A stretch of 64,000 bases of DNA from a virus (taxonomy: Duplodnaviria; Caudoviricetes): positions 16,025 to 80,024 of IMG/VR virus record IMGVR_UViG_3300013212_000061; one strand, given 5' to 3'. The translations under genes and the position numbers were made by a program. Below the pieces are notes generated by a model. The model searched no databases. It was given only the letters and a program-made list of their open reading frames with translations, and was not told where the DNA came from. The first letter of the stretch is position 1; each line of letters starts with the position of its first letter. Positions 3,511 through 63,445 of the stretch are shown piece by piece.

Positions 3511-4593
3511 ATGATTCCAATCAAGCTTTTCGAAGAATTCTTATACGAAGAAAATCTTAAAAACAAATACGCTAAGAAAGTGGCATGGATTATGAAGTCT
3601 CATGATATTCATGCAACTTCAGGCGATGTTAATGGCCGCGAAAAGAAATACAATATCGCCGCTAAAGGTAACCTATTCTTAAACTATGCAACCAAAGAGG
3701 ACTTTAAAGATGATGCAGTTGTAGTACCTGGAAATGTTCCAATACTTAATTATGGAGGAGCAGTAGACCCGGAGGCTATTGGATTCTTAAAGAATAAAGG
3801 AATCAACAATGATAATCTATACAACAAAAGAGAATTACTTCCACTATCAGGAGACAAGATAAAATTTGCTAAAGCAGCCGCAAAATTTGATTGGCTTCCA
3901 AAAACAGTTTTTACAAAAGAGGATGCCATTAAAGGAGACGTTGGTTTCCCGGTAATTGCAAAAATAAAAGATGGACACAGTGGAGTTGGAATTCAAAGGT
4001 TTGACACCGCCAAAGAATTAGAAGAGAGCAAAGATACATTCGATATCTTTTGTCAATTTATAGATTTTGCAAGAGAATATAGAGTAATGTTTTGTAGAGA
4101 CAAGATATTTGTTATCAACGAAAGAGTACCTAGAATTGAGGACGACCGTTCAATCAAAACTAAAACTGCCGATGAAAAAATCAGTTTTACTTATGTTTAT
4201 CAAGACAGAAAGAAAGTTGACCCTGAATTTATTGAAAATGTGTTATCAATTTGCAAAGACGTTAAAACATTCTTAGACCTAGACTTATGGGCCCTAGATA
4301 TTGTAGTAGATAAAAAGGGTAAAATGTGGATTATGGAAACATCATCTGCTACCGGACTTGGAAGTGTTAAAATGTGCGAAGTTTATAAGGCAATGTATGA
4401 AGATTTTTACGGAGAAGCAATAGATGACGAATTCTTAGAGGACATTTACCTAAAATACGTAGTTCCTGGACATCAAAATTATTACCCAAAATTTAAAAAA
4501 GAAATCGATTCATCACAATGGCCGATGGATTACAAAATATTGACTGATCCGAAAGCAAAAGATGGATATAGATATTTTTTTAATTTAGATTAA
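3511..4593 (+). CDS. RimK-like ATP-grasp ligase with N-terminal capsid-targeting-like peptide
   Basis: GDKIKF, LPKT, FPVIAKIKDGHSGVGI, REYRV, ALDIVVD..MWIMETSSATG; starts MIPIKLFEEFLYE; GATATATAA at 3480. Confidence 0.75.
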   Translation: MIPIKLFEEFLYEENLKNKYAKKVAWIMKSHDIHATSGDVNGREKKYNIAAKGNLFLNYATKEDFKDDAVVVPGNVPILNYGGAVDPEAIGFLKNKGINNDNLYNKRELLPLSGDKIKFAKAAAKFDWLPKTVFTKEDAIKGDVGFPVIAKIKDGHSGVGIQRFDTAKELEESKDTFDIFCQFIDFAREYRVMFCRDKIFVINERVPRIEDDRSIKTKTADEKISFTYVYQDRKKVDPEFIENVLSICKDVKTFLDLDLWALDIVVDKKGKMWIMETSSATGLGSVKMCEVYKAMYEDFYGEAIDDEFLEDIYLKYVVPGHQNYYPKFKKEIDSSQWPMDYKILTDPKAKDGYRYFFNLD

Positions 4594-8513: not shown

Positions 8514-9618
8514 ATTTACATTTGACGATTTAAACGCAGAACTTGCAGGATTAAATCCACTAGGTTCTGTTATGGATAAATCAGACTTTTCGGAAGTTAC
8601 TGAATGGATTCATACTGGAAACTATCATTTAAACGCATGTCTGTCTGGGGATTTATTTGGTGGATGGCCAAATAATAGGTCTTGCTCGATTGCTGGACCA
8701 TCAGGAACAGGTAAAACTTTCTTGACACTGAATTCAGTTCGAGAGGCAATCAACATGGGTTATTACGTAATCTATTATGATTCAGAAGCTGCAGTTGACA
8801 AAGACCAAATGGTAAAATTTGGTATTGATGTAACTAAAGTAAACTACCAACCTGTAAATACAGTACAGGCATTTAGAACTTCGGTAACCTCAATTACCCA
8901 AAAAATGCAAGAGGTTAAAAGAAAAGGTGGAGAGATTCAAAAGATTATGATTATCTTAGATAGTGCCGGTAACCTTGCAACACAAAAAGAAATTGATGAT
9001 GCTGCAACTGGAAGTGAGAAGGCAGATATGACACGTTCTAAAATGTTAAAGTCAATCTTTAGAATTATCATGACGCCATTGGCTGACTTAAAGATCCCGT
9101 TCTTATTTACAAATCACACATACCAAACCCAAGATTTCATCTCACGTCAGGTTGCCGGAGGTGGTACTGGACCAGAGTATGCCGCTTCAATAGTTCTTAT
9201 GTTAAATAAGGCGCAATTGAAAGATGGTGATAAAAAAGTTGGTATCGTTGTAACCGCCAAGCCTGACAAGAATCGTTTCGCAAAACCCCACCCAATTAAA
9301 TTCCACCTCGACTTTACTAAAGGTATGAATCCTTACGTTGGATTAGAACAATATGCTACATGGGATATTTGTGGAATCACAAGAGGTTCTATTGAAAAGG
9401 GTGTTAAAACTCCTAAATCAACTGCAAGAGGATGGATTTGTAAACACCTTGATGAGACTGTTTCTAATGCAGAATTCTTTACTGAAAAGGTATTTACAAG
9501 AGAGGTGCTTGAACAAATTAATGAGTACCTTAAGCCAATTTTTAATTATAATACTTCGGCTGAAACTCTTAATAATGAAATTGGAGACTTATTAAACGAG
9601 GACTTAGATACTGAATAA
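8500..9618 (+). CDS. uvsX: RecA-like recombinase UvsX
   Basis: Walker A GPSGTGKT, YYDSE, ILDS, KADMTR, TNHTY; ATG at 8500 preferred over TTG at 8461. Confidence 0.92.
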   Translation: MAKNRFTFDDLNAELAGLNPLGSVMDKSDFSEVTEWIHTGNYHLNACLSGDLFGGWPNNRSCSIAGPSGTGKTFLTLNSVREAINMGYYVIYYDSEAAVDKDQMVKFGIDVTKVNYQPVNTVQAFRTSVTSITQKMQEVKRKGGEIQKIMIILDSAGNLATQKEIDDAATGSEKADMTRSKMLKSIFRIIMTPLADLKIPFLFTNHTYQTQDFISRQVAGGGTGPEYAASIVLMLNKAQLKDGDKKVGIVVTAKPDKNRFAKPHPIKFHLDFTKGMNPYVGLEQYATWDICGITRGSIEKGVKTPKSTARGWICKHLDETVSNAEFFTEKVFTREVLEQINEYLKPIFNYNTSAETLNNEIGDLLNEDLDTE

Positions 9619-9619
9619 T

Positions 9620-9931
9620 ATGGAAGTGAATCTTAATCGACTAGATGAAGACAAACTACCCATTAAATATATTTTAGGCATCCATGAACAACTAGAAAGT
9701 TTTCCGGATGCCTTTGATATTATACATGTTTATGTTGTCGAAACTATGAAAAAACCAGACCGACCACGAATCAATTTTACAAAACACTCATTGATGACAT
9801 ATCATGCATGCGGTAATATTGAAAATGCGGAGAAAGGTTTAGAACAGGCAATTGGCCTAGGTTTAATTGAGCAAACCCATTTTGAAGATGGAAAAGAAAC
9901 ATACAAAATATTAATGAACCCGTTCCAATAA
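9620..9931 (+). CDS. Hypothetical protein
   Basis: ORF between uvsX and the helicase. Confidence 0.6.
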   Translation: MEVNLNRLDEDKLPIKYILGIHEQLESFPDAFDIIHVYVVETMKKPDRPRINFTKHSLMTYHACGNIENAEKGLEQAIGLGLIEQTHFEDGKETYKILMNPFQ

Positions 9932-9959
9932 GAAACTTTACCCCAAACAGGCTTATAAT
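9932..9959 (+). promoter_or_regulatory. Class II promoter GAAAC-N17-TATAAT
   Basis: Exact motif upstream of the helicase. Confidence 0.65.
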
Positions 9960-9971
9960 CTAAAAAAATAT

Positions 9972-11285
9972 ATGAAATTCGGACAAGATTTTGAAAAAAT
10001 ATTCTTTAAGTTATCTTTGGCAAAACCAAAGTACTTAGAAAAAATACATAAAGGTTTTTATACTTCAGATGAAATAGATACGATGCACTTTTTAGCAACG
10101 AAGTTCTATGAGAAATTCCATGAAGCGCCAAAAGCAGATCAGATGAAAATCCTTTCTCAAAGTCCTAAATTTAAAGGAAAAGTAGATGAGAATATTATTG
10201 AATTGGTTTATAAAACGGACCTTACCCAATATGATGATGAATGGTTAGTTTCTACTGCTGAAGCCTGGATTAAATGGAGAACATTCGATACTACTTTAAT
10301 AGACACTATTGAGTATATTAAAACAACTGAAGTTACTCCAGAGAATGCTGATTCAATCATCTCAAAAGTTAAAAGTTTAATTAATGACCGAAATTCAATT
10401 GTATTTAACTCAGATATTGGATTAGATTTCTTTAATGCAGGAGACCACTATCAAGAGGGTAGAGCTAAATTTTCAACTGGATATAACTTTTTAGACCGAT
10501 TACTTTCCGGAGGTTATGACAAAGATGGTTCATTAATAGTTTATGTTGGAGAACAAAATATCGGTAAGTCTATTTTCTTAGCAAATGATGCCGCAAATTT
10601 TGTTAAAATGGGAGTTAACACTGCATTTGTTTCAGCAGAGATGGCAGCTCATAAAGTTCTTAAAAGAATTGGAGCAAACCTACTTACAATTCCAATGAAT
10701 GAATATGATGCAAAAGCCCAAAATAAAGACTTGATTAAAAGAAAGCTTGAAAATGTAGGTGATGGTTTAACACCACCTGGAAATCTTTTTGTAAAACAAT
10801 TTCCAACATCTCAAGCTACCGTACCAGATATTGAAGCCCATCTAAAACAAATCGAAGAGGAACGTAAAATAAAACTAGGAGCTATTGTTATTGACTATAT
10901 AAATATCCTAGCAAATTATAGAAATCCAAACTCTGAAAATATGTACCTTAAAATCAAGCAAATTGCTGAAGATTTACGTGCAATGGGAGTAAGAAATAAT
11001 TGGTTGATAGTTACTGCAACACAGATTAATCGAAATAATTATAATTCAAGTGATATTGGAATGGGAGATGTTGCAGAATCCGCAGGACTTTCACATACCG
11101 CAGATTTAATGCTTGGAATTATTCAAGATGATATTATGCGAGCATCATTTGAATATTGGCTTAAAGTCTTAAAAATTAGAGATGGTGAAGGTAAGGGTGT
11201 TAAATGCCGATTAGATATTAATTATCAATATATGAGACTTACCGAAACAGATGACGTTACAAATTCAAACATACACAACTTATAA
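9972..11285 (+). CDS. DnaB-like replicative helicase (gp41-like)
   Basis: GEQNIGKS, SAEM, VIDYINI, TATQINR, AESAGLSHTAD, KIRDG. Confidence 0.92.
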   Translation: MKFGQDFEKIFFKLSLAKPKYLEKIHKGFYTSDEIDTMHFLATKFYEKFHEAPKADQMKILSQSPKFKGKVDENIIELVYKTDLTQYDDEWLVSTAEAWIKWRTFDTTLIDTIEYIKTTEVTPENADSIISKVKSLINDRNSIVFNSDIGLDFFNAGDHYQEGRAKFSTGYNFLDRLLSGGYDKDGSLIVYVGEQNIGKSIFLANDAANFVKMGVNTAFVSAEMAAHKVLKRIGANLLTIPMNEYDAKAQNKDLIKRKLENVGDGLTPPGNLFVKQFPTSQATVPDIEAHLKQIEEERKIKLGAIVIDYINILANYRNPNSENMYLKIKQIAEDLRAMGVRNNWLIVTATQINRNNYNSSDIGMGDVAESAGLSHTADLMLGIIQDDIMRASFEYWLKVLKIRDGEGKGVKCRLDINYQYMRLTETDDVTNSNIHNL

Positions 11286-21718: not shown

Positions 21719-21785
21719 GGTGTCTAAACTGGAATTGAAACAGAATCAACACTTCGTTATATAAGATTAAACTAAAAGAATTAAA

Positions 21786-37993: not shown

Positions 37994-39829
37994 ATGTCAA
38001 ATGAAAACTATATAGGTGATAATAAATGGATCCCTAGTGGAGATTCAGAAAAGGATGCACAAAAACTAGTATGGTCAACTAAGATTATTAATGACTTAAT
38101 GGTTGCCTTGGATAAAGGTTATAGACCCCAAGTCAGTATGCCTTTCTACGAAGGAAAACAATTCTTACGTAGAGGTAATATTGTATTTGAGTATACTGAA
38201 GCAGAACTTAAAGAAATTACAAAGTGCGCAAATGATATTGTTTACTTTGCAGAGAAATATGCAGTTGTAATGACTGATAATGGTATTCAACAAGTAAAAC
38301 TTAGAGAATACCAAAAAGACCTATTAAGGGACTTTCAACACAACCGATTTAATATTGTCCTAGCATCCAGACAGATGGGTAAAACTGTAACTGCCAGTAT
38401 TTTTAATGCATGGTACCTTACATTTAACTATGACAAAACAACCTTACTACTTGCAAATAAATCTGAATCAACAAAAGAGATTATTGACAAGGCTAAAGTT
38501 GTAATTGAGAACCTTCCATTCTTTATGAAGCCGGGAATTATCAAATATGATGTAATGAACGTAAGGGCTGATAATGGTTGTAGACTTGTTGGTCAGTCAA
38601 CTACAGCTAAGTCAGGTATTGGTTTTACTATTCACAATTTATATCTTGATGAGTTTGCTCACGTTCATCCAACGATTGTAAACTCATTCTATGAAAACGT
38701 TTACCCTACACTTTCTGCCTCAAAGATTTCTAGAATCAATATTACCAGTACACCAAATGGATTTAATAAGTTCTATGAAATTTATTCCGATGCTGAAAAA
38801 GGTAATAATGAGTACAAAGCAACCCGAATAGATTGGTGGCAACATCCTGATAGGGACGATGCTTGGTATAAAAGAGAACTTGGAAACTTAGGTTCTGAGG
38901 ATGCTTTTAATAGACAATATGGTAATGAGTTTACCAGCTCATCTAGTTTATTGCTAAGTCCTGGTACGATGAAAAATATCAGAAAGAATGCTAAGAAATT
39001 TGTTTGGCATGATATTGAAGAGTTTGAAAATGCCCATATTGATACTCAAGGATTCCTTTCATTTAACCCTGGCTTTGATATTGAAGAGGCCGCAAACGAA
39101 GAAAAATATTACCTATTTACAGTTGATATTGCAGAAGGGAATGGAGGAGACTATTCGGTTATAAATATGTTTGAAGTTGAACCACTTCCGGATAAAGACA
39201 TAGAAAATTATATTAATCCAGGAGCGATGTATGATTTTTTTAGAATTAATCAAGTTGGAATATTCCGAAGCAATGAGCATCCAATCGAAGACTTTGCAAA
39301 AATCTTATACATATTGGCCCTTGATGTATTTAATGCTGAAAATGTTAAATTGATTATTGAATATAATACTTATGGAAGTATCTTATTACAGTACCTTTCA
39401 ACAGTTTTCCCAGGGAGAAATGAATTTGAAGATGAATTGGTCCTAAGATTTAAACATCGACATGATGCAAAAGCACCAAAACCTGGAATTAGATTAAAGT
39501 CTGATAATAAATCAGTTTTCTGTCAAAACTTTAAAAAGTTTATAGAAATTAATCGCGTTAAGATAAATGATATACAAACAGTCCAAGAGGCCAGTCTTTT
39601 TGGAATCGTTAAAAATGGAAGCTATGGAGCCCAGATGGGAAATGATGATTCAATCATGACATGCATTACAGCAACTGAATTTTTTACAACGGTAGATTAT
39701 GCAGATTATGTTGAAGAGCTATTGGATATTATAGAACCTGAAAAGCACTCACTTATGGAAAAAATATTATATAAAAATAATGATTTTCAAGGAGATTTAC
39801 AATTTGATATTTATTCATTACTAGACTAA
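37994..39829 (+). CDS. Terminase large subunit (gp17-like)
   Basis: LREYQ, SRQMGKT, YLDEFAH, STPNG, VDIAEG.GGDYS, NDD. Confidence 0.95.
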   Translation: MSNENYIGDNKWIPSGDSEKDAQKLVWSTKIINDLMVALDKGYRPQVSMPFYEGKQFLRRGNIVFEYTEAELKEITKCANDIVYFAEKYAVVMTDNGIQQVKLREYQKDLLRDFQHNRFNIVLASRQMGKTVTASIFNAWYLTFNYDKTTLLLANKSESTKEIIDKAKVVIENLPFFMKPGIIKYDVMNVRADNGCRLVGQSTTAKSGIGFTIHNLYLDEFAHVHPTIVNSFYENVYPTLSASKISRINITSTPNGFNKFYEIYSDAEKGNNEYKATRIDWWQHPDRDDAWYKRELGNLGSEDAFNRQYGNEFTSSSSLLLSPGTMKNIRKNAKKFVWHDIEEFENAHIDTQGFLSFNPGFDIEEAANEEKYYLFTVDIAEGNGGDYSVINMFEVEPLPDKDIENYINPGAMYDFFRINQVGIFRSNEHPIEDFAKILYILALDVFNAENVKLIIEYNTYGSILLQYLSTVFPGRNEFEDELVLRFKHRHDAKAPKPGIRLKSDNKSVFCQNFKKFIEINRVKINDIQTVQEASLFGIVKNGSYGAQMGNDDSIMTCITATEFFTTVDYADYVEELLDIIEPEKHSLMEKILYKNNDFQGDLQFDIYSLLD

Positions 39830-40586
39830 TAAAGGTCTCTGATACTACGTTATATTTGGTCGTTCTTTGTTTCATAAGTATACCTCCAGAGACCTTTTTA
39901 ATTTCAATAAGGAAATAAAGATATATAGAATAACGACTAAATATAATTATTAACTTATGATAAAATATCACTATGTGTATAGAATAACTAACACAAAACT
40001 CAACAAACACTATTATGGTTCAAGAACATCTCAAATAGAACCTGCAAAAGATTTGGGACATAAGTACTTTTCAAGTTCTTTTGATAAAGAATTTATCAAA
40101 GACCAAAAGAACAATCCACAGGATTATAAATACGTGATAGTTTCTAAATTTAATTCACGAAAAGAGGCTCTAGAATTAGAAGTTAAACTACACACAAAAT
40201 TTAACGTAGGAGTTAACAATAATTTTTATAATAAAGCTAGAGCAACTTCTTCAAAATTCACAATGGAAGGAACCAAAATATCGGAAGAAACTAGACTAAA
40301 GCATATTGGCGAAAATAATGGAATGTATGCTAAAAATCATACAATTGAATCTAGAATTAAAATGAGTCAATCTAGTAAAAATCCATCCGAAGCTACTCGA
40401 AAAAAAATGTCTGAAAATCATGCGGACGTTTCAGGAGATAAAAATCCAATGTATAATAAAAATCATACAATTGAATCTAGAATTAAAATGTCAAAGCCAA
40501 AGACCGAAGAACATCGTCGCAAAATGTCCGAAGCGGCAAAAAGAAGATACTCTAAATAAAAAGACATATACGATTTATTGGTATAA
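39800..40586 (+). mobile_element. Endonuclease cassette inserted into the terminase 3' end
   Basis: Terminase ends DIYSLLD*; an orphan DIYDLLV* lies at 40563-40586; left boundary approximate. Confidence 0.65.
39957..40559 (+). CDS. GIY-YIG homing endonuclease with NUMOD3 repeats
   Basis: YVYRITN..YYG.R..Y..SS, E, YN; two N.MY.KNHT.ESR.KMS repeats. Confidence 0.85.
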   Translation: MIKYHYVYRITNTKLNKHYYGSRTSQIEPAKDLGHKYFSSSFDKEFIKDQKNNPQDYKYVIVSKFNSRKEALELEVKLHTKFNVGVNNNFYNKARATSSKFTMEGTKISEETRLKHIGENNGMYAKNHTIESRIKMSQSSKNPSEATRKKMSENHADVSGDKNPMYNKNHTIESRIKMSKPKTEEHRRKMSEAAKRRYSK

Positions 40587-40637
40587 AATCCATTTTAATT
40601 TAGATATCTAATAAAAGAAAAAAATATAATTAAAATT

Positions 40638-42917
40638 ATGGCACTAAGTCCGCAATTATTAAATTTTAAGAGCTCAGGAGTTTATAGACTTGAGTTTGAT
40701 AAATCTCAAACAGCAAATATAAATGTTGAGACTCTTAGATTAATGGTAGGTCACTCTAAAAAAGGTCCTTACAACACACCAGTTTTGATTGATTCAGTTG
40801 AGACACTTACTAATGTGTTTGGAAACATTGATAAAAGTTTAGAAAAAAAAGGAATGTTTTTCCACAGATCGTGTATCGAAGCTCTTTCAAGAGGTCCTAT
40901 ATTGGCCTTAAATCTTGAACAATTCACAAACTTAGATATTACATCTTACCAAAGTCCAGTAACTTGTGGAGGCGCTGGAGCAGTTAACATTACATCAGAC
41001 AGTGGTACTGATGAATATAGCAAGTTTTTTGATAATGATAAATTCATGGTTCCTTCAGATACTGCTACACTAGCAACTATTAACCCTGATAACGATCACA
41101 TTTTAAACTTTGTAAATATTAAACAAGATTCAATTACAATTATTGTAAGACAAGCACAAGACGTTAAAGAATTTGACTTAACTGCAAGAGAATGGTATGG
41201 TGTTGGAAATGTCCCAGAATACTTAAATGATTTTGACAAAATGTCAGATTTTATGATTGACGTATTCGTATTCAAAGGAGAATTTGATGCTGCAACAATG
41301 GCAAATGACCCGATTTATTCTGCTTACTTTACAGCAGACGGTTTAGATAAAACAAAACTTGCACAATTTGCAAACTTAAGACAAGTTAGTTTAATTGCAC
41401 AATACACCGGTTCTATCTTACCAGGATTTAAAGACCTTGAAGGTAGAAACTTATACATTGAATCAACTATTAATGCAGAGGCCAGAAGAACTGGTTTATT
41501 CTGTGCAGTTAATGAAGATGCAGTTATGGACGAACAAGGAACTCAAGTTGATTTTGTTGGACATGTACATAATAGTGCTAATAGTTACGAACTACTATCT
41601 CACTATGTTCCTGTAGGTGATAGAGAAACTACTGAAACTTTTGTTGATGGTACTATTGGAACTAATACTTCTTTAGGTTTTTCAAATTTCACTGTAACTT
41701 ATGCAACAGGAGATGAACCTACAACATTCCCAATTACAGTTGGACAATATGTTGATGCCGCTACTACTGATAGACTTGCAAGAGTTAATAGAGTTGCAAA
41801 AGCAATCGATGGTGGAGATACTATTTTTACAGTTTATACTGATGTAGAACCTGCTTATAATGATAGAATTATTGAATCTTATGAAGCTGCTTCTCTAGTT
41901 TATAAAACTTTTGTATTGACAAAAGCATCTATAACTGGAAAAGAAATAAGCGACTATTTATCAGTTCTTTCTGGTGGTAATGGAATCTATGATGCCTTAG
42001 TTGACAAAGACATTATCGATTTTAGATATGTCGTAGATACTTTTACATCTTTTGATGAGAATGGATTAAATAACAAACGTAATCTTTCTCAATTAGCAAA
42101 AGACAGACAAAATGCTGCTGCAATCTTAAATGCACCAACAATTGAAGATTTCAAAAAATCTACAGACCCATCTTTCACCGATGAGAATTTAGCATTTGAT
42201 ACAGCTTATATCGCATCAGGTGGTAATCAAGATAAAAACCCAACCAAAATATATGCCCTACCAAGTATTAATGAAGGTGCAAATTATGCATTCTACTACG
42301 GACCTGGTTTAATCGTAAGTGACAATGGAAAAGACATTATTGTTCCTCCAGCTGCTTATGTTGCTAACAACTATATCGACAAATACACGAATGCTCTTCC
42401 ATGGTCAATCGTTGCTGGTCCAAGAAGAGGAGTTGTTGCAGGTACTAATGTTAAAGGAGTTGAGTATTCATTTGATAAAGGTGATAGAGATATTCTAGAG
42501 CCATTCGGAATTAACCCAATTGTATTCCAAAGAGGAACAGGTTTAACTATCTTAGGTAATAAAACTGCTCAACAATCTATTAAATCTGCGCTTTCTTCTG
42601 CTCACGTAAGAGAGGTACTTATTTATATCCAAGACGGTATGGCAAATATTCTTAAAGATTACATATTTGAATTTAATACTGCACAAACAAGACTTGAAAT
42701 CAAGACCCTTGCAGATGCGTTCTTACAAGGTGTTAAACAAGATAATGGTGTTTATGAGTTTAAAAATGTAATGGACTCAACAAACAATACAAATGAGGTT
42801 ATTGATAATAATATTGGTATAATTGATACTTACGTAGAACCTGTTAAAGGTTTAGAAATTGTAGTTCACAGAACAACAGTTTTAAATACTGGAGAAATTC
42901 AATCAGGTAACCTATAA
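40638..42917 (+). CDS. Tail sheath protein (gp18-like)
   Basis: SSGVY..EFD, KGPYN.PV, PW..VAGPRRG, INPI, LGNKT, VREVL. Confidence 0.93.
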   Translation: MALSPQLLNFKSSGVYRLEFDKSQTANINVETLRLMVGHSKKGPYNTPVLIDSVETLTNVFGNIDKSLEKKGMFFHRSCIEALSRGPILALNLEQFTNLDITSYQSPVTCGGAGAVNITSDSGTDEYSKFFDNDKFMVPSDTATLATINPDNDHILNFVNIKQDSITIIVRQAQDVKEFDLTAREWYGVGNVPEYLNDFDKMSDFMIDVFVFKGEFDAATMANDPIYSAYFTADGLDKTKLAQFANLRQVSLIAQYTGSILPGFKDLEGRNLYIESTINAEARRTGLFCAVNEDAVMDEQGTQVDFVGHVHNSANSYELLSHYVPVGDRETTETFVDGTIGTNTSLGFSNFTVTYATGDEPTTFPITVGQYVDAATTDRLARVNRVAKAIDGGDTIFTVYTDVEPAYNDRIIESYEAASLVYKTFVLTKASITGKEISDYLSVLSGGNGIYDALVDKDIIDFRYVVDTFTSFDENGLNNKRNLSQLAKDRQNAAAILNAPTIEDFKKSTDPSFTDENLAFDTAYIASGGNQDKNPTKIYALPSINEGANYAFYYGPGLIVSDNGKDIIVPPAAYVANNYIDKYTNALPWSIVAGPRRGVVAGTNVKGVEYSFDKGDRDILEPFGINPIVFQRGTGLTILGNKTAQQSIKSALSSAHVREVLIYIQDGMANILKDYIFEFNTAQTRLEIKTLADAFLQGVKQDNGVYEFKNVMDSTNNTNEVIDNNIGIIDTYVEPVKGLEIVVHRTTVLNTGEIQSGNL

Positions 42918-50237: not shown

Positions 50238-50310
50238 TAACTTTAACAAAATTTTAACACTCTAGATTTTCACGATTCAAGCATATTGATTATATTTACA
50301 TATCTAATTA
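50232..50310 (+). promoter_or_regulatory. Repeated early-promoter cassette
   Basis: Near-identical to the 49772 copy. Confidence 0.7.
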
Positions 50311-50323
50311 AAACAAAGAAATC

Positions 50324-50521
50324 ATGACAACAATTACAAACATTCTTAATGCAGCTAAAAGTCTTAACGCTCAAAACTTTGCAAGTTTTCTAGACAACAA
50401 CAAAATTTCATTCACAATTTTAGATTGTAACATTATGGACTACAATGATGATTATTTTAACATAATTATCGACAAGTTTGACGAAAACATTTTATTTTTT
50501 GACGGTAAATTTCAATCATAA
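50324..50521 (+). CDS. Hypothetical early protein
   Basis: Leader ATTAAAACAAAGAAATCATGAC shared with the next gene. Confidence 0.6.
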   Translation: MTTITNILNAAKSLNAQNFASFLDNNKISFTILDCNIMDYNDDYFNIIIDKFDENILFFDGKFQS

Positions 50522-57805: not shown

Positions 57806-58258
57806 ATGAAACATATTAAACTATTTGAAGAATTTACCGCAAATCAAATTAAATGTGATAAATGCGGTTGGAAATGGAGACTTGAAGACGGAGGTAACGA
57901 CGTTTTTTTATGCAAATGCGGACATGATAACACTCCAGAATTTGTACAAGAGGCAGAGAAAAAAGAGATGGACAAAGGTCCACTAGATAACGCCGGAATT
58001 AATAAGGCGCTTGATAAAAAAGCAAAAGCATCTGGAGTTCCAATAGGAATTATTAGAGCAGTGATGCGAAGAGGAATGGGAGCTTGGAACAGCAGTCACA
58101 GGGCTGGAGTTCCACAAGAGGCTTGGGGATATGCCCGGGTTGGAGCTTTTTTAGAAAAAGGTGAAGGAACATGGCAAAAAGCAGATGCTGATTTGGCAAA
58201 AGAAGTTCGAGATGGAGGACATGACAAAAAACTACCATGGAAACCTAAAGAAGACTAA
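57806..58258 (+). CDS. Tagged protein with Zn ribbon and DUF5824-like domain
   Basis: MKHIKLFEEF; CDKC..CKC; RRGMGAW..SHR.G...AWGYARV.AF. Confidence 0.65.
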   Translation: MKHIKLFEEFTANQIKCDKCGWKWRLEDGGNDVFLCKCGHDNTPEFVQEAEKKEMDKGPLDNAGINKALDKKAKASGVPIGIIRAVMRRGMGAWNSSHRAGVPQEAWGYARVGAFLEKGEGTWQKADADLAKEVRDGGHDKKLPWKPKED

Positions 58259-58381
58259 AGCAATATAGAGACTTACTTAATGTTTCATAAGATTTGTCGT
58301 TACTTCTTTAAAATAAAGGTAAGTCTCTTATTTTTATTTAGATATATAATATAACGACAAATCTAAATAAATTTTAATCTT

Positions 58382-59334: not shown

Positions 59335-60189
59335 ATGGCAAAATGTAAAATATGTAAAGAAGAAGACCAAAGTAAATCAAAGTCTTTTAGATGTGAAAAA
59401 TGTACTGAAGCATCTTTAAAATGTGAAGGTTGTGGAAACAAGAAATCGAAATCAACTTATCGTTTTTGTAGAAATTGTATAGGATCTGATTTAACATATA
59501 GGAATAATTTAAGTGCATCTTTGAAAGGAAAGACTTCTTGGGCTAAAGGATTAACTAAAGAAACAAATAATTCTATTAAAAGAAGTTCTGAATCTAAAAA
59601 AGGTGTATTATTATCAGATTCTCATAAAGCAAAAATATCTAGTAGTATGACTGGAAAACATGCAGGTGCTAAAAATCCTTTTTATGGAAAAACACACACT
59701 GATGAATTAAAAGTCAAATGGTCTGCTGAAAGATCCGGAAAATCAATTCATACCGACGAGACAAAAGAAAGAATGAGAAATAAAATGCTAGAAAGATATG
59801 AAAATGGTGAAATTCAAAAATCACCAAAATCTAACTGGTATGAATTTCAAGGACTTAAGTGTCAAGGAAGAACTGAATTAAAATGGGTAGAAAGAAACTT
59901 TGATAGAATAATTAATAGTCGAATTTACATAAGTACACCACATGGAACCTATATTGGAGATTTTGAAACTAATGATTCATTAATAGAAGTTAAATCATTT
60001 TACACATTTAGCGTAATTAGTCAAAATCAACTTGATAAAATAATGTGGATAGACAAAAATATTAAAAAGATTATTTTTGCAGTTAAAAAAGATAATAAAT
60101 TCTATGAATTTAGTTATAACAACGAAGGAGTTGATTGGGCTATGAAAAAAATGGACGAAATAAAAAAAGAAAATAATGAAAAAATTTAA
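59335..60189 (+). CDS. Putative homing endonuclease: Zn finger + NUMOD3 + PD-(D/E)XK domain
   Basis: Four CxxC pairs, NPFYGKTHT, YIGDF...IEVKS; ATG at 59335 after GATATATA. Confidence 0.7.
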   Translation: MAKCKICKEEDQSKSKSFRCEKCTEASLKCEGCGNKKSKSTYRFCRNCIGSDLTYRNNLSASLKGKTSWAKGLTKETNNSIKRSSESKKGVLLSDSHKAKISSSMTGKHAGAKNPFYGKTHTDELKVKWSAERSGKSIHTDETKERMRNKMLERYENGEIQKSPKSNWYEFQGLKCQGRTELKWVERNFDRIINSRIYISTPHGTYIGDFETNDSLIEVKSFYTFSVISQNQLDKIMWIDKNIKKIIFAVKKDNKFYEFSYNNEGVDWAMKKMDEIKKENNEKI

Positions 60190-63373: not shown

Positions 63374-63445
63374 GCAGATATCGTATAATGGCCATTACTT
63401 TAGACTTCCAATCTAAAGATGGGAGTTCGATTCTCCCTATCTGCT
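63374..63445 (+). tRNA. tRNA-Gly(TCC)
   Basis: GCAGATA/TATCTGC, TTAGA-CTTCCAA-TCTAA, GGGAG-TTCGATT-CTCCC. Confidence 0.92.

Follow-up and report, generated by a model that had tools for sequence, protein, structure and literature searches.

The expression of homing endonuclease genes (HEGs) in the T4 family (I-TevI, I-TevII, I-TevIII, segB and Aeh1 mobE) was reviewed by Edgell, Gibb and Belfort (2010; PMC2988022). According to the available text of that review, an RNA structure that hides the start forms only on transcripts coming from an upstream promoter, and a late promoter situated between the two halves of the structure gives rise to an RNA that can be translated. For T4 and E. coli, the same text gives intrinsic terminators a loop of about 4 nt. 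The PeSL, as presented in the accessible part of Comeau, Arbiol and Krisch (2014; PMC4122927), are composite terminator/early-promoter cassettes of T4-like phages. The cassette described here precedes a nuclease gene in another group of phages, and its comparison with these systems suggests that it is best understood as a modified form of the control that acts on I-TevI, segB and mobE in the T4 family.

The stretch of DNA that was analysed, called here the window, has 64,000 nt and comprises bases 16025-80024 of an 80,024-bp IMG/VR viral contig, which has an estimated completeness of 28% and 34% G+C. The source phage is read as a member of an uncultured marine jumbo phage clade; its nearest named kin are distant and consist of Tenacibaculum phage pT24 and large uncultured phages. 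Shine-Dalgarno cores were depleted before the starts of its genes, being found at 6 of 76 ORFs versus 18% of random 17-mers, and the leaders of the contig ORFs contained 54% A. Both properties fit a host that may not rely on Shine-Dalgarno pairing.

Three cassettes will be considered: cassette 1 at position 39831, cassette 2 at 58.3 kb and cassette 3, which lies outside the window. A preliminary description of the window had placed at cassette 1 a stem, two antisense blocks and the word GATATATA at 39920, and we found all these elements at their positions (Table 1). The stem of cassette 1 has 11 bp (39831-41 with 39887-97), and TTATATTTGGTCGTT in the loop (39850-64) complements 39932-46 with one G-U pair. 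In the cassette 1 family both antisense blocks stand in crossing order, so the two cannot pair in one simple hairpin. The nuclease encoded behind cassette 1 matched NUMOD3 above the cut-off (42.6 bits) and GIY-YIG with 16 bits, under the cut-off of 22.6; across these nuclease genes the GIY-YIG scores were 16-19 bits against the same cut-off.

Table 1. Features of cassettes 1 and 2 and of the surroundings of cassette 1 (positions in the window)
Feature	Position	Strand	Remark
T4-type large terminase gene	37994-39829		upstream neighbour of cassette 1
Recoded terminase 3' tail (..NDFQGDLQFDIYSLLD, stop)	39784-39830	+	left end of 779-nt insertion
Cassette 1, hairpin 5' arm AAAGGTCTCTG	39831-39841	+	5/11 stem pairs with compensatory changes in 9 relatives
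Cassette 1, 45-nt loop holding both antisense blocks	39842-39886	+	
Cassette 1, block A, anti-leader GTTATATTTGGTCGTT	39849-39864	+	pairs with 39932-39947, 16 pairs
Cassette 1, block B, anti-start TCATAAGT	39872-39879	+	pairs with 39953-39960 across ATG at 39957
Cassette 1, hairpin 3' arm CAGAGACCTTT (39887-97) into T-run	39887-39902	+	
Cassette 1, putative promoter word GATATATA	39920-39927	+	
Cassette 1, A/T-rich leader starting ..ATAACGAC	39928-39956	+	without Shine-Dalgarno sequence
Homing endonuclease gene, 200 aa, GIY-YIG-like N-terminus and NUMOD3	39957-40559	+	
Vestigial original terminase end GACATATACGATTTATTGGTATAA	40563-40586	+	aligns with true terminase end of G001
Putative sheath-gene promoter word, mutated to GATATCTA	40603-40610	+	GATATATA in G001
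Tail sheath gene	40638-42917		beyond cassette 1 nuclease gene
Cassette 2, hairpin	58267-58328	+	arms 58267-78 and 58317-28, 38-nt loop
Cassette 2, antisense block TGTTTCATAAGATTTGTCGTTA	58281-58302	+	pairs with 58352-64 and 58377-89
Cassette 2, putative promoter word GATATATA	58341-58348	+	
HNH homing endonuclease gene, 175 aa	58382-58909	+	behind cassette 2

The HNH assignment of the nuclease behind cassette 2 rests on 19.6 bits in hmmscan and 22.3 bits in a six-frame search, the cut-off being 21.4. A third nuclease gene with a cassette, the second of the GIY-YIG/NUMOD3 kind, was found at contig position 9947. The features that the preliminary description held to be common to cassettes 1 and 2 are genuine: TGTTTCATAAG stands exactly at 39868 and 58281, with its complement at 58379, and GATATATA..ATAACGAC was found at 39920 and 58341 only. 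The order of the antisense blocks in cassette 1 is, as had also been pointed out, opposite to that in cassette 2. The presence of TGTTTCATAAG in both looks like common descent, because in the relative L273 the gene start cttATGAAA pairs with the whole word and because L013 has mutated that part of it which does not pair with its own gene.

The word GATATATA occurs in the whole contig 16 times on the gene (+) strand and 0 times on the other strand, with about 3 occurrences expected from shuffles. In three related contigs the strand bias was 36:1, 15:1 and 8:1; the reversed word, used as a control in the same contigs, gave 7:8, 5:2 and 6:1. Mostly the word stands 4-40 nt before an ATG, often right after a small hairpin with a T-run, and the genes behind it encode the tail tube, major head protein, prohead protease and tail fibre, as well as the sheath in the related contig G001. 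Since it is strand-biased and precedes structural genes, we infer that GATATATA is the late-type promoter word of this clade. In the cassettes an exact copy lies 29-33 nt ahead of the nuclease ATG and would be the gene's own promoter; the genes upstream of cassettes 1 and 2 likewise carry GATATATA. A separate dispersed promoter-like repeat, unlike GATATATA, is present elsewhere.

To quantify the complementarity, we determined, at the 15 GATATATA sites of the contig that have a downstream ORF, the most stable RNA duplex that the upstream 95 nt can form with the leader up to ATG+12. The duplex of cassette 1 reached -19.8 kcal/mol (z -4.2), with none of 200 shuffles as good; cassette 2 gave -23.6 kcal/mol (z -6.1) and cassette 3 -23.0 kcal/mol (z -4.2). 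At the remaining 12 promoters z ranged from -1.5 to +1.7, and the three outliers among the 15 sites are exactly the three recognisable homing-endonuclease genes of the contig. The census was then taken over four related contigs (this one and three related records), with 75 GATATATA sites and 67 distinct downstream ORFs. A z of -4 or lower was found at 7 of 9 HEG-like genes versus 1 of 58 others (Fisher p 3.2e-7). The two HEG-like genes of the census without the design encode a NUMOD3-only protein with a 4-nt leader (window 59335-60189) and a protein whose gene has a 109-nt leader (G002:74089). The sole non-nuclease gene with the design is G001:206867. Comparison with shuffles and enrichment before endonuclease genes had both been named as tests in the preliminary description, and both set the cassettes apart from the background.

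The complementarity is maintained by compensatory changes. In an alignment of nine sequences of the cassette 1 family (A1), 98.3% of the cells pair, and sliding the partners lowers this to 33-50%; both members have changed in 6 pairs, and none of 500 shuffles attained the covariation score. The stem accounts for 5 compensatory pairs, and the 16-bp helix of loop and leader, paired in 100% of its cells, includes one AU/UA swap and one GU/GC change. Block B follows the start of the gene behind it: it reads TCATAAGT for ACTTATGA in cassette 1, TGTTCAT for ATGAACA in type A and L312, and TTTCATAAGT for ACTTATGAAA in L273. The loop-leader helix of a second family (11 sequences) contains 5 compensatory pairs; its alignment (A2) is imperfect, with some stems out of register, so that the stem percentages understate pairing there. 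A GTCGTT/AACGAC core is common to three nuclease families. Beyond this core, cognate loops and leaders pair over 10, 12, 6, 10, 4 and 8 consecutive positions, versus 0-8 in non-cognate combinations (0-7 between different families).

In their close relatives (L013, L014, L030 and L031) the two window cassettes are retained. Public viral collections were scanned with the pattern GATATATANNATAACGAC, which gave 36 loci; 17 of these had a cassette ahead of a GIY-YIG or HNH gene. A scan of metagenome contigs with the same pattern gave 117 loci, 111 of them evaluable, and 10 of the 111 had a z of -3.5 or lower; nine of these ten were cassettes before GIY-YIG-like genes. The two sets of loci overlap, as some contigs occur in both collections. 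We rejected GATATATANNATAACGAC as a specific marker, since 19 of the 36 viral and about 101 of the 111 metagenome matches were cassette-free and arose by chance. Altogether there are at least 12 sequence types, at least 9 of them from public contigs beyond cassettes 1-3. In 20 of the 22 tabulated cassettes a stem of 9-16 bp encloses a loop of 29-49 nt and is followed by a T-rich tail, which means that the stem and U-tract of an intrinsic terminator are present and its short loop is absent. At other sites with a hairpin and T-run in these contigs the loop had at most 12 nt in 32 of 43 cases; the strict terminator scan used for this overlooks interrupted T-runs or G-U pairs in stems and served for the loop-size background only. 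The two exceptions among the 22 are genes with a plain layout, with the putative promoter inside the loop of a start-covering hairpin. One is G002:43319, with a 19-nt perfect repeat and no terminator, and the other G001:206867, where the anti-leader is formed by the terminator's own 3' arm and T-run. The more distant nuclease homologues (L016, L032-33, L037-L043) had no cassette, which shows that the association does not extend to these protein families as a whole. The proposal of a conserved RNA-level module tied to mobile nucleases is supported.

The borders of the insertion are visible at cassette 1. In G001 and in a contig from a marine RNA-library run, the junction of the terminase and sheath genes has neither cassette nor nuclease; these nuclease-free alleles have 22 nt where the window has 39784-40562 (779 nt). 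In the contigs of four RNA runs no transcript starts or ends were seen. Downstream of the insertion, the relic at 40563-86 corresponds to the original last seven codons and stop of the terminase gene. Presence/absence alleles thus support the mobility of the nuclease gene. When cassette 1 with its gene was compared with type A, which occupies another site in G001, BLAST similarity was 76% and began no more than 3 nt from the first base of the hairpin; the similarity of cassette 3 to type D likewise begins within 3 nt of this base. The alignments indicate that cassette and nuclease gene move as one unit, in agreement with the earlier suggestion that the module travels with the nuclease.

We then folded the RNAs that would arise by read-through from upstream and those that would start at the cassette's own promoter. 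For the first 15 nt of the leader, the probability of being unpaired was 0.07 in the read-through RNA versus 0.88 in the own-promoter RNA of cassette 1, 0.37 versus 0.91 in cassette 2, and 0.03 versus 0.85 in type B. In the minimum free energy fold of cassette 2, leader and start are bound by the antisense (z -4.5). In nested folding of five of the eight cassette types (cassette 3, A, C, D and E) the terminator stem was kept and the leader remained largely free; such folding is ambiguous here, as the terminator stem competes with the loop-leader helix and pseudoknots are outside the model. Since the stem is kept in those five types, translation could be blocked there only if a pseudoknot formed between loop and tail or if the stem melted.

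The analysis shows the complementarity with its HEG specificity and covariation, the hairpin, and the joint movement of cassette and gene, and these can be combined in a model whose promoter activity, start site, termination and translational block are predicted from the sequence. The cartridge consists, in this order, of a terminator-like hairpin with a T-run and the antisense in its loop, GATATATA, a short A/T-rich leader and the HEG. Transcription from upstream would mostly be stopped at the hairpin. An RNA that reads through would hold both antisense and leader, and the two would pair over 15-25 bp, hiding the start codon and the unstructured leader presumably required by ribosomes in a Shine-Dalgarno-poor system. 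An RNA begun at the cassette's own promoter would lack the antisense and should be translatable. This promoter would then be the only productive source of the HEG regardless of the site of insertion, and possibly it also feeds the downstream gene. We consider it somewhat probable that the cassette is such a fail-safe, in which a terminator-like hairpin is combined with translational silencing of read-through RNA. In T4 the rationale is that early read-through is blocked; this does not obviously carry over to cassettes 1 and 2, as GATATATA also stands at the genes upstream of them. These genes appear to be late too, so the purpose of the cassette looks like insulation rather than timing. Against this reading stand the 29-49-nt loop, which is atypical for an efficient intrinsic terminator, the crossing order of the two blocks in the cassette 1 family, the nested folds of five types with a largely free leader, the two HEG-like genes without the design and the one non-HEG gene with it.

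Natural antisense RNAs typically present their pairing region in a loop, and the cassettes do the same. An action in trans is the strongest alternative: an upstream RNA ending at the cassette would show the anti-leader in its loop, and its 3' end, either as such or as a processed piece, would bind the HEG mRNA made from the cassette's own promoter and throttle the nuclease in proportion to the expression of the upstream gene. The idea is attractive because the position in the loop is so constant; the antisense lies inside a terminator-like hairpin loop in at least 12 sequence types, where terminated RNA would expose it, and in the centroid fold of cassette 1 the loop is unpaired. Regulatory roles have been reported for the terminator loops of small RNAs, according to the accessible part of the source 'likely without base-pairing' (PMC11979758). 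The plain layouts speak against an action in trans, since in G001:206867 the anti-leader would be concealed in the terminated RNA and G002:43319 has no terminator at all. Furthermore, no promoter for a small RNA is visible in the cassettes, and there seems to be no room for one in types B, C and L262, where an ordinary terminator lies less than 10 nt upstream of the cassette hairpin. We regard it as rather unlikely that the hairpin is mainly a display scaffold and that each upstream mRNA ending there is a 3'-end-embedded antisense regulator of the nuclease mRNA. If this were true, nuclease output would depend on how strongly the host gene is transcribed relative to the nuclease gene; scaffold, programmable loop, promoter and leader would make up a riboregulator portable across sites and nuclease families, carried by selfish genes in phages whose hosts translate without Shine-Dalgarno pairing.

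Processing or decay of the RNA was also considered. Here the loop-leader duplex of 15-21 bp in read-through RNA would be cut by a double-strand-specific RNase, which would destroy the HEG part and separate the upstream mRNA from the HEG mRNA. Types B, D and L265 have helices of up to 18-21 bp, which is roughly the size required by RNase III-type enzymes. RNase E processing of the segB, segG and Aeh1 mobE transcripts, mentioned in the available text of PMC2988022, also counts in favour of this possibility. In several cassettes, however, the helices are interrupted or shorter (8-15 bp), and processing is compatible with the fail-safe reading rather than exclusive of it. As the explanation in its own right it appears improbable.

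The repeats do flank the promoter, and they could in principle act as DNA, either as operator half-sites, for example for autorepression through the DNA-binding domain of the nuclease, or as a recombination signal; for I-TevI, the available account describes binding to an operator that overlaps the late promoter of its gene (PMC2988022). The sequences of the repeats vary within one nuclease family and yet remain complementary, the block order is swapped in one family, and a protein would have to re-evolve its specificity for each cassette. The kinds of change also fit RNA of the plus strand. A G-U pair in cassette 1 and type A is G-C in L312, an A-to-G change in L031 yields G-U, L262 and L250 have G-U where L314 has G-C, and the helix of L265 contains a central G-U; in all, G-U/G-C alternations were seen in four independent places. 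The plus-strand duplex was the more stable one in 15 of 23 cassettes (Wilcoxon p 0.036, the cassettes not being independent of each other). Alternation and strand preference point to pairing of plus-strand RNA and not to a DNA repeat, and we consider a DNA element very improbable. A loose local-alignment count of 25 G-U pairs versus 16 A-C mismatches was discarded, as it reached into unpaired flanks, and the duplex-based comparison was used instead.

The preliminary description also proposed that one cassette's loop could repress the leader of the other nuclease in trans, and TGTTTCATAAG in the loop of cassette 1 indeed matches 11 nt across the HNH start versus 8 nt on its own gene. The energies of the cognate loop-leader pairs were -18.6, -23.6 and -22.8 and those of non-cognate pairs -8.1 to -16.4. 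Set against 11 unrelated leaders, these loops gave minima of -11.5 to -15.2; the non-cognate values lie roughly within that background, which the cassette 3 loop slightly exceeded on the leader of cassette 2 (-16.4). The extra TGTT of the match is not kept in L013, and the proposal of cross-regulation has hardly any likelihood left. That the complementarity is due to chance, or is a neutral by-product of how the insertions arose with no function, is scarcely credible: AT-rich DNA (34% GC) makes short complementarity common, but the shuffles, the controls with real promoters, the compensatory changes across 20 sequences and the occurrence in at least 12 sequence types all contradict it.

The module had been called possibly undescribed. 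In Rfam, the covariance models gave no match at the gathering score except a tRNA, and the best E in two of the cassettes was 0.22-0.73, with scores far under the gathering level. Neither the architecture nor the word GATATATA was found described in the openly accessible literature that was searched. The suggestion therefore holds for the architecture, which is new to Rfam and to the literature searched, and fails for the principle, which is already known from the T4 family (PMC2988022, available text). If the fail-safe reading is right, restraint of a selfish nuclease by pairing of its start has arisen beyond the T-even phages of enterobacteria, in a clade of marine jumbo phages with a different late promoter word, translation without Shine-Dalgarno sequences and a compact cartridge that moves with the nuclease. 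The cassettes would offer at least 12 naturally reprogrammed loop/leader pairs on one scaffold, a test set for leader accessibility in SD-poor initiation, and could serve as a design template for insulated expression units. A further yield is an RNA family that could be proposed to Rfam, together with a working definition of the clade's late promoter word.

Several known systems share single elements with the cassette. The T4 genes soc, e, 39, 25 and 26, for which the available text of the review gives sequestration of the ribosome-binding site (PMC2988022), have the plain layout of G001:206867 and G002:43319, whereas most cassettes here are of the terminator-loop variant and nuclease-specific. 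Like PeSL, the cassette combines a small stem-loop with a promoter, here a putative one, and such a composite sits beside accessory genes and travels with them. Work by Arbiol from 2010 is said to deal with the PeSL cassettes of T4-like phages as well. PeSL contain an early promoter and were proposed to be recombination points, and the accessible part of that paper does not mention antisense-to-leader content (PMC4122927); the cassettes here carry the putative promoter word of structural genes and do contain such an antisense. As the hairpin here would, a terminator in T4 mobE and segF limits transcription into a free-standing nuclease gene; as far as the available text goes, those terminators are situated in the 5' part of the coding sequence, with ordinary small loops and no antisense function (PMC2988022). 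As in the autorepression of I-TevI, there would be an additional layer of control at the late promoter of the nuclease gene itself. In the case of I-TevI it consists in protein-DNA recognition of a look-alike of the homing site (PMC2988022, same limits), whereas here it would be the conserved complementarity of plus-strand RNA.

The closest likeness is to the T4-family HEGs, as far as the consulted account of them reaches. In both, a complement of the initiation region lies upstream of a late-type promoter, a putative one in the cassettes, so that only read-through RNA has the two together, and in both the arrangement sits before GIY-YIG and HNH homing endonucleases. The word of the T4 late promoter is TATAAATA, and the cassettes have GATATATA instead. 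In the T4 examples a Shine-Dalgarno sequence is sequestered in a simple local hairpin, whereas the genes here have no such sequence, and the pairing would involve the start codon together with the first part of the leader. The cassettes further differ from what is presented for the T4 family in that a GTCGTT/AACGAC core runs through nuclease families and in that the antisense is carried in the large loop of a separate hairpin with its own T-run.

The insertion of the third nuclease cassette is flanked on both sides by an 80-bp piece of the target, comprising the promoter region and the first 15 codons. Upstream, the target duplication left a 15-codon stub ORF (MNILDEASGIVNNRS, then stop), and the working gene (MKNILEEANDIVNNRSEE..) lies downstream. 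When the flanks were compared with the related phage record G001, the upstream one was 99% identical and the downstream one 90%, the pattern that co-conversion from a diverged donor would be expected to leave. The GIY-YIG gene of this cassette ends early, coding for just 159 aa, while one more NUMOD3 match runs on in another frame (contig positions 10384-10449, in L002); a frameshift or decay of the gene is the probable cause.

At cassette 1, the promoter word of the sheath gene behind the nuclease gene was found to be altered to GATATCTA, and the sheath gene may now be dependent on the promoter of the nuclease cassette. The family of cassette 1 also carries an extra short word with complementarity to the start region, located between the T-run and the promoter (window 39898-39919, and the corresponding spacer in relatives). 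It reads TTCAATAAG in cassette 1, TTCATAA in type A (a cassette at another genomic site, in the relative G001) and TTTTCAT in L273, a relative with a differing gene start. The word varies together with the start context.

Features by location; contig positions count on the whole 80,024-bp viral record
Feature	Location	Remarks
Third nuclease cassette	contig 9783-10650; L002:1337-2200	outside the window, ~6 kb upstream of its base 1
Relic of the original terminase end and altered sheath promoter word	window 40563-40610	behind the nuclease gene
284-aa protein	window 59335-60189	cysteine-rich N-terminus and NUMOD3 motif
tRNA gene	window 63374-63445	Rfam RF00005, 65.6 bits
GIY-YIG/NUMOD3 gene without cassette	L241:14090-14200	G002 (related phage record) positions 74089-74194

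Many otherwise unrelated ORFs open with M-x-x-I-K-L-F-E-E/Q-F, among them those at window positions 57806 and 58911 and elsewhere in the window, for instance at 3511, and those at 21720, 95975, 147408 and 202867 in G001; when the motif is defined loosely, 12 of the 298 ORFs of G001 and 5 of 99 in the record G000 match it. Both neighbours of the HNH insertion begin in this way. A second dispersed repeat with a promoter-like look, 39 nt long (ATTATATTTACATATCTAATT..) and ending at an ATG, is present at window 50289-50327, at contig position 9468 and at ~20 sites in G001; it may represent a further promoter class, of early or middle type.

No recognised nuclease domain was detected in the 284-aa protein, and the antisense cassette is absent before its gene, where GATATATA stands just 4 nt ahead of the ATG. 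The 109-nt leader of the cassette-less GIY-YIG/NUMOD3 gene holds a tRNA-like fragment (..GGGTTCGAAACC..), and a local 9-bp hairpin (AATTAGTCT/AGACTAATT) lies directly ahead of the ATG. In another phage, an HNH homologue (60% identical; L034:1440-1500) has TATAAATA within a small hairpin, TAAGTTT/AAACTTA, adjoining the ATG, and this arrangement is the classic T4-like layout.
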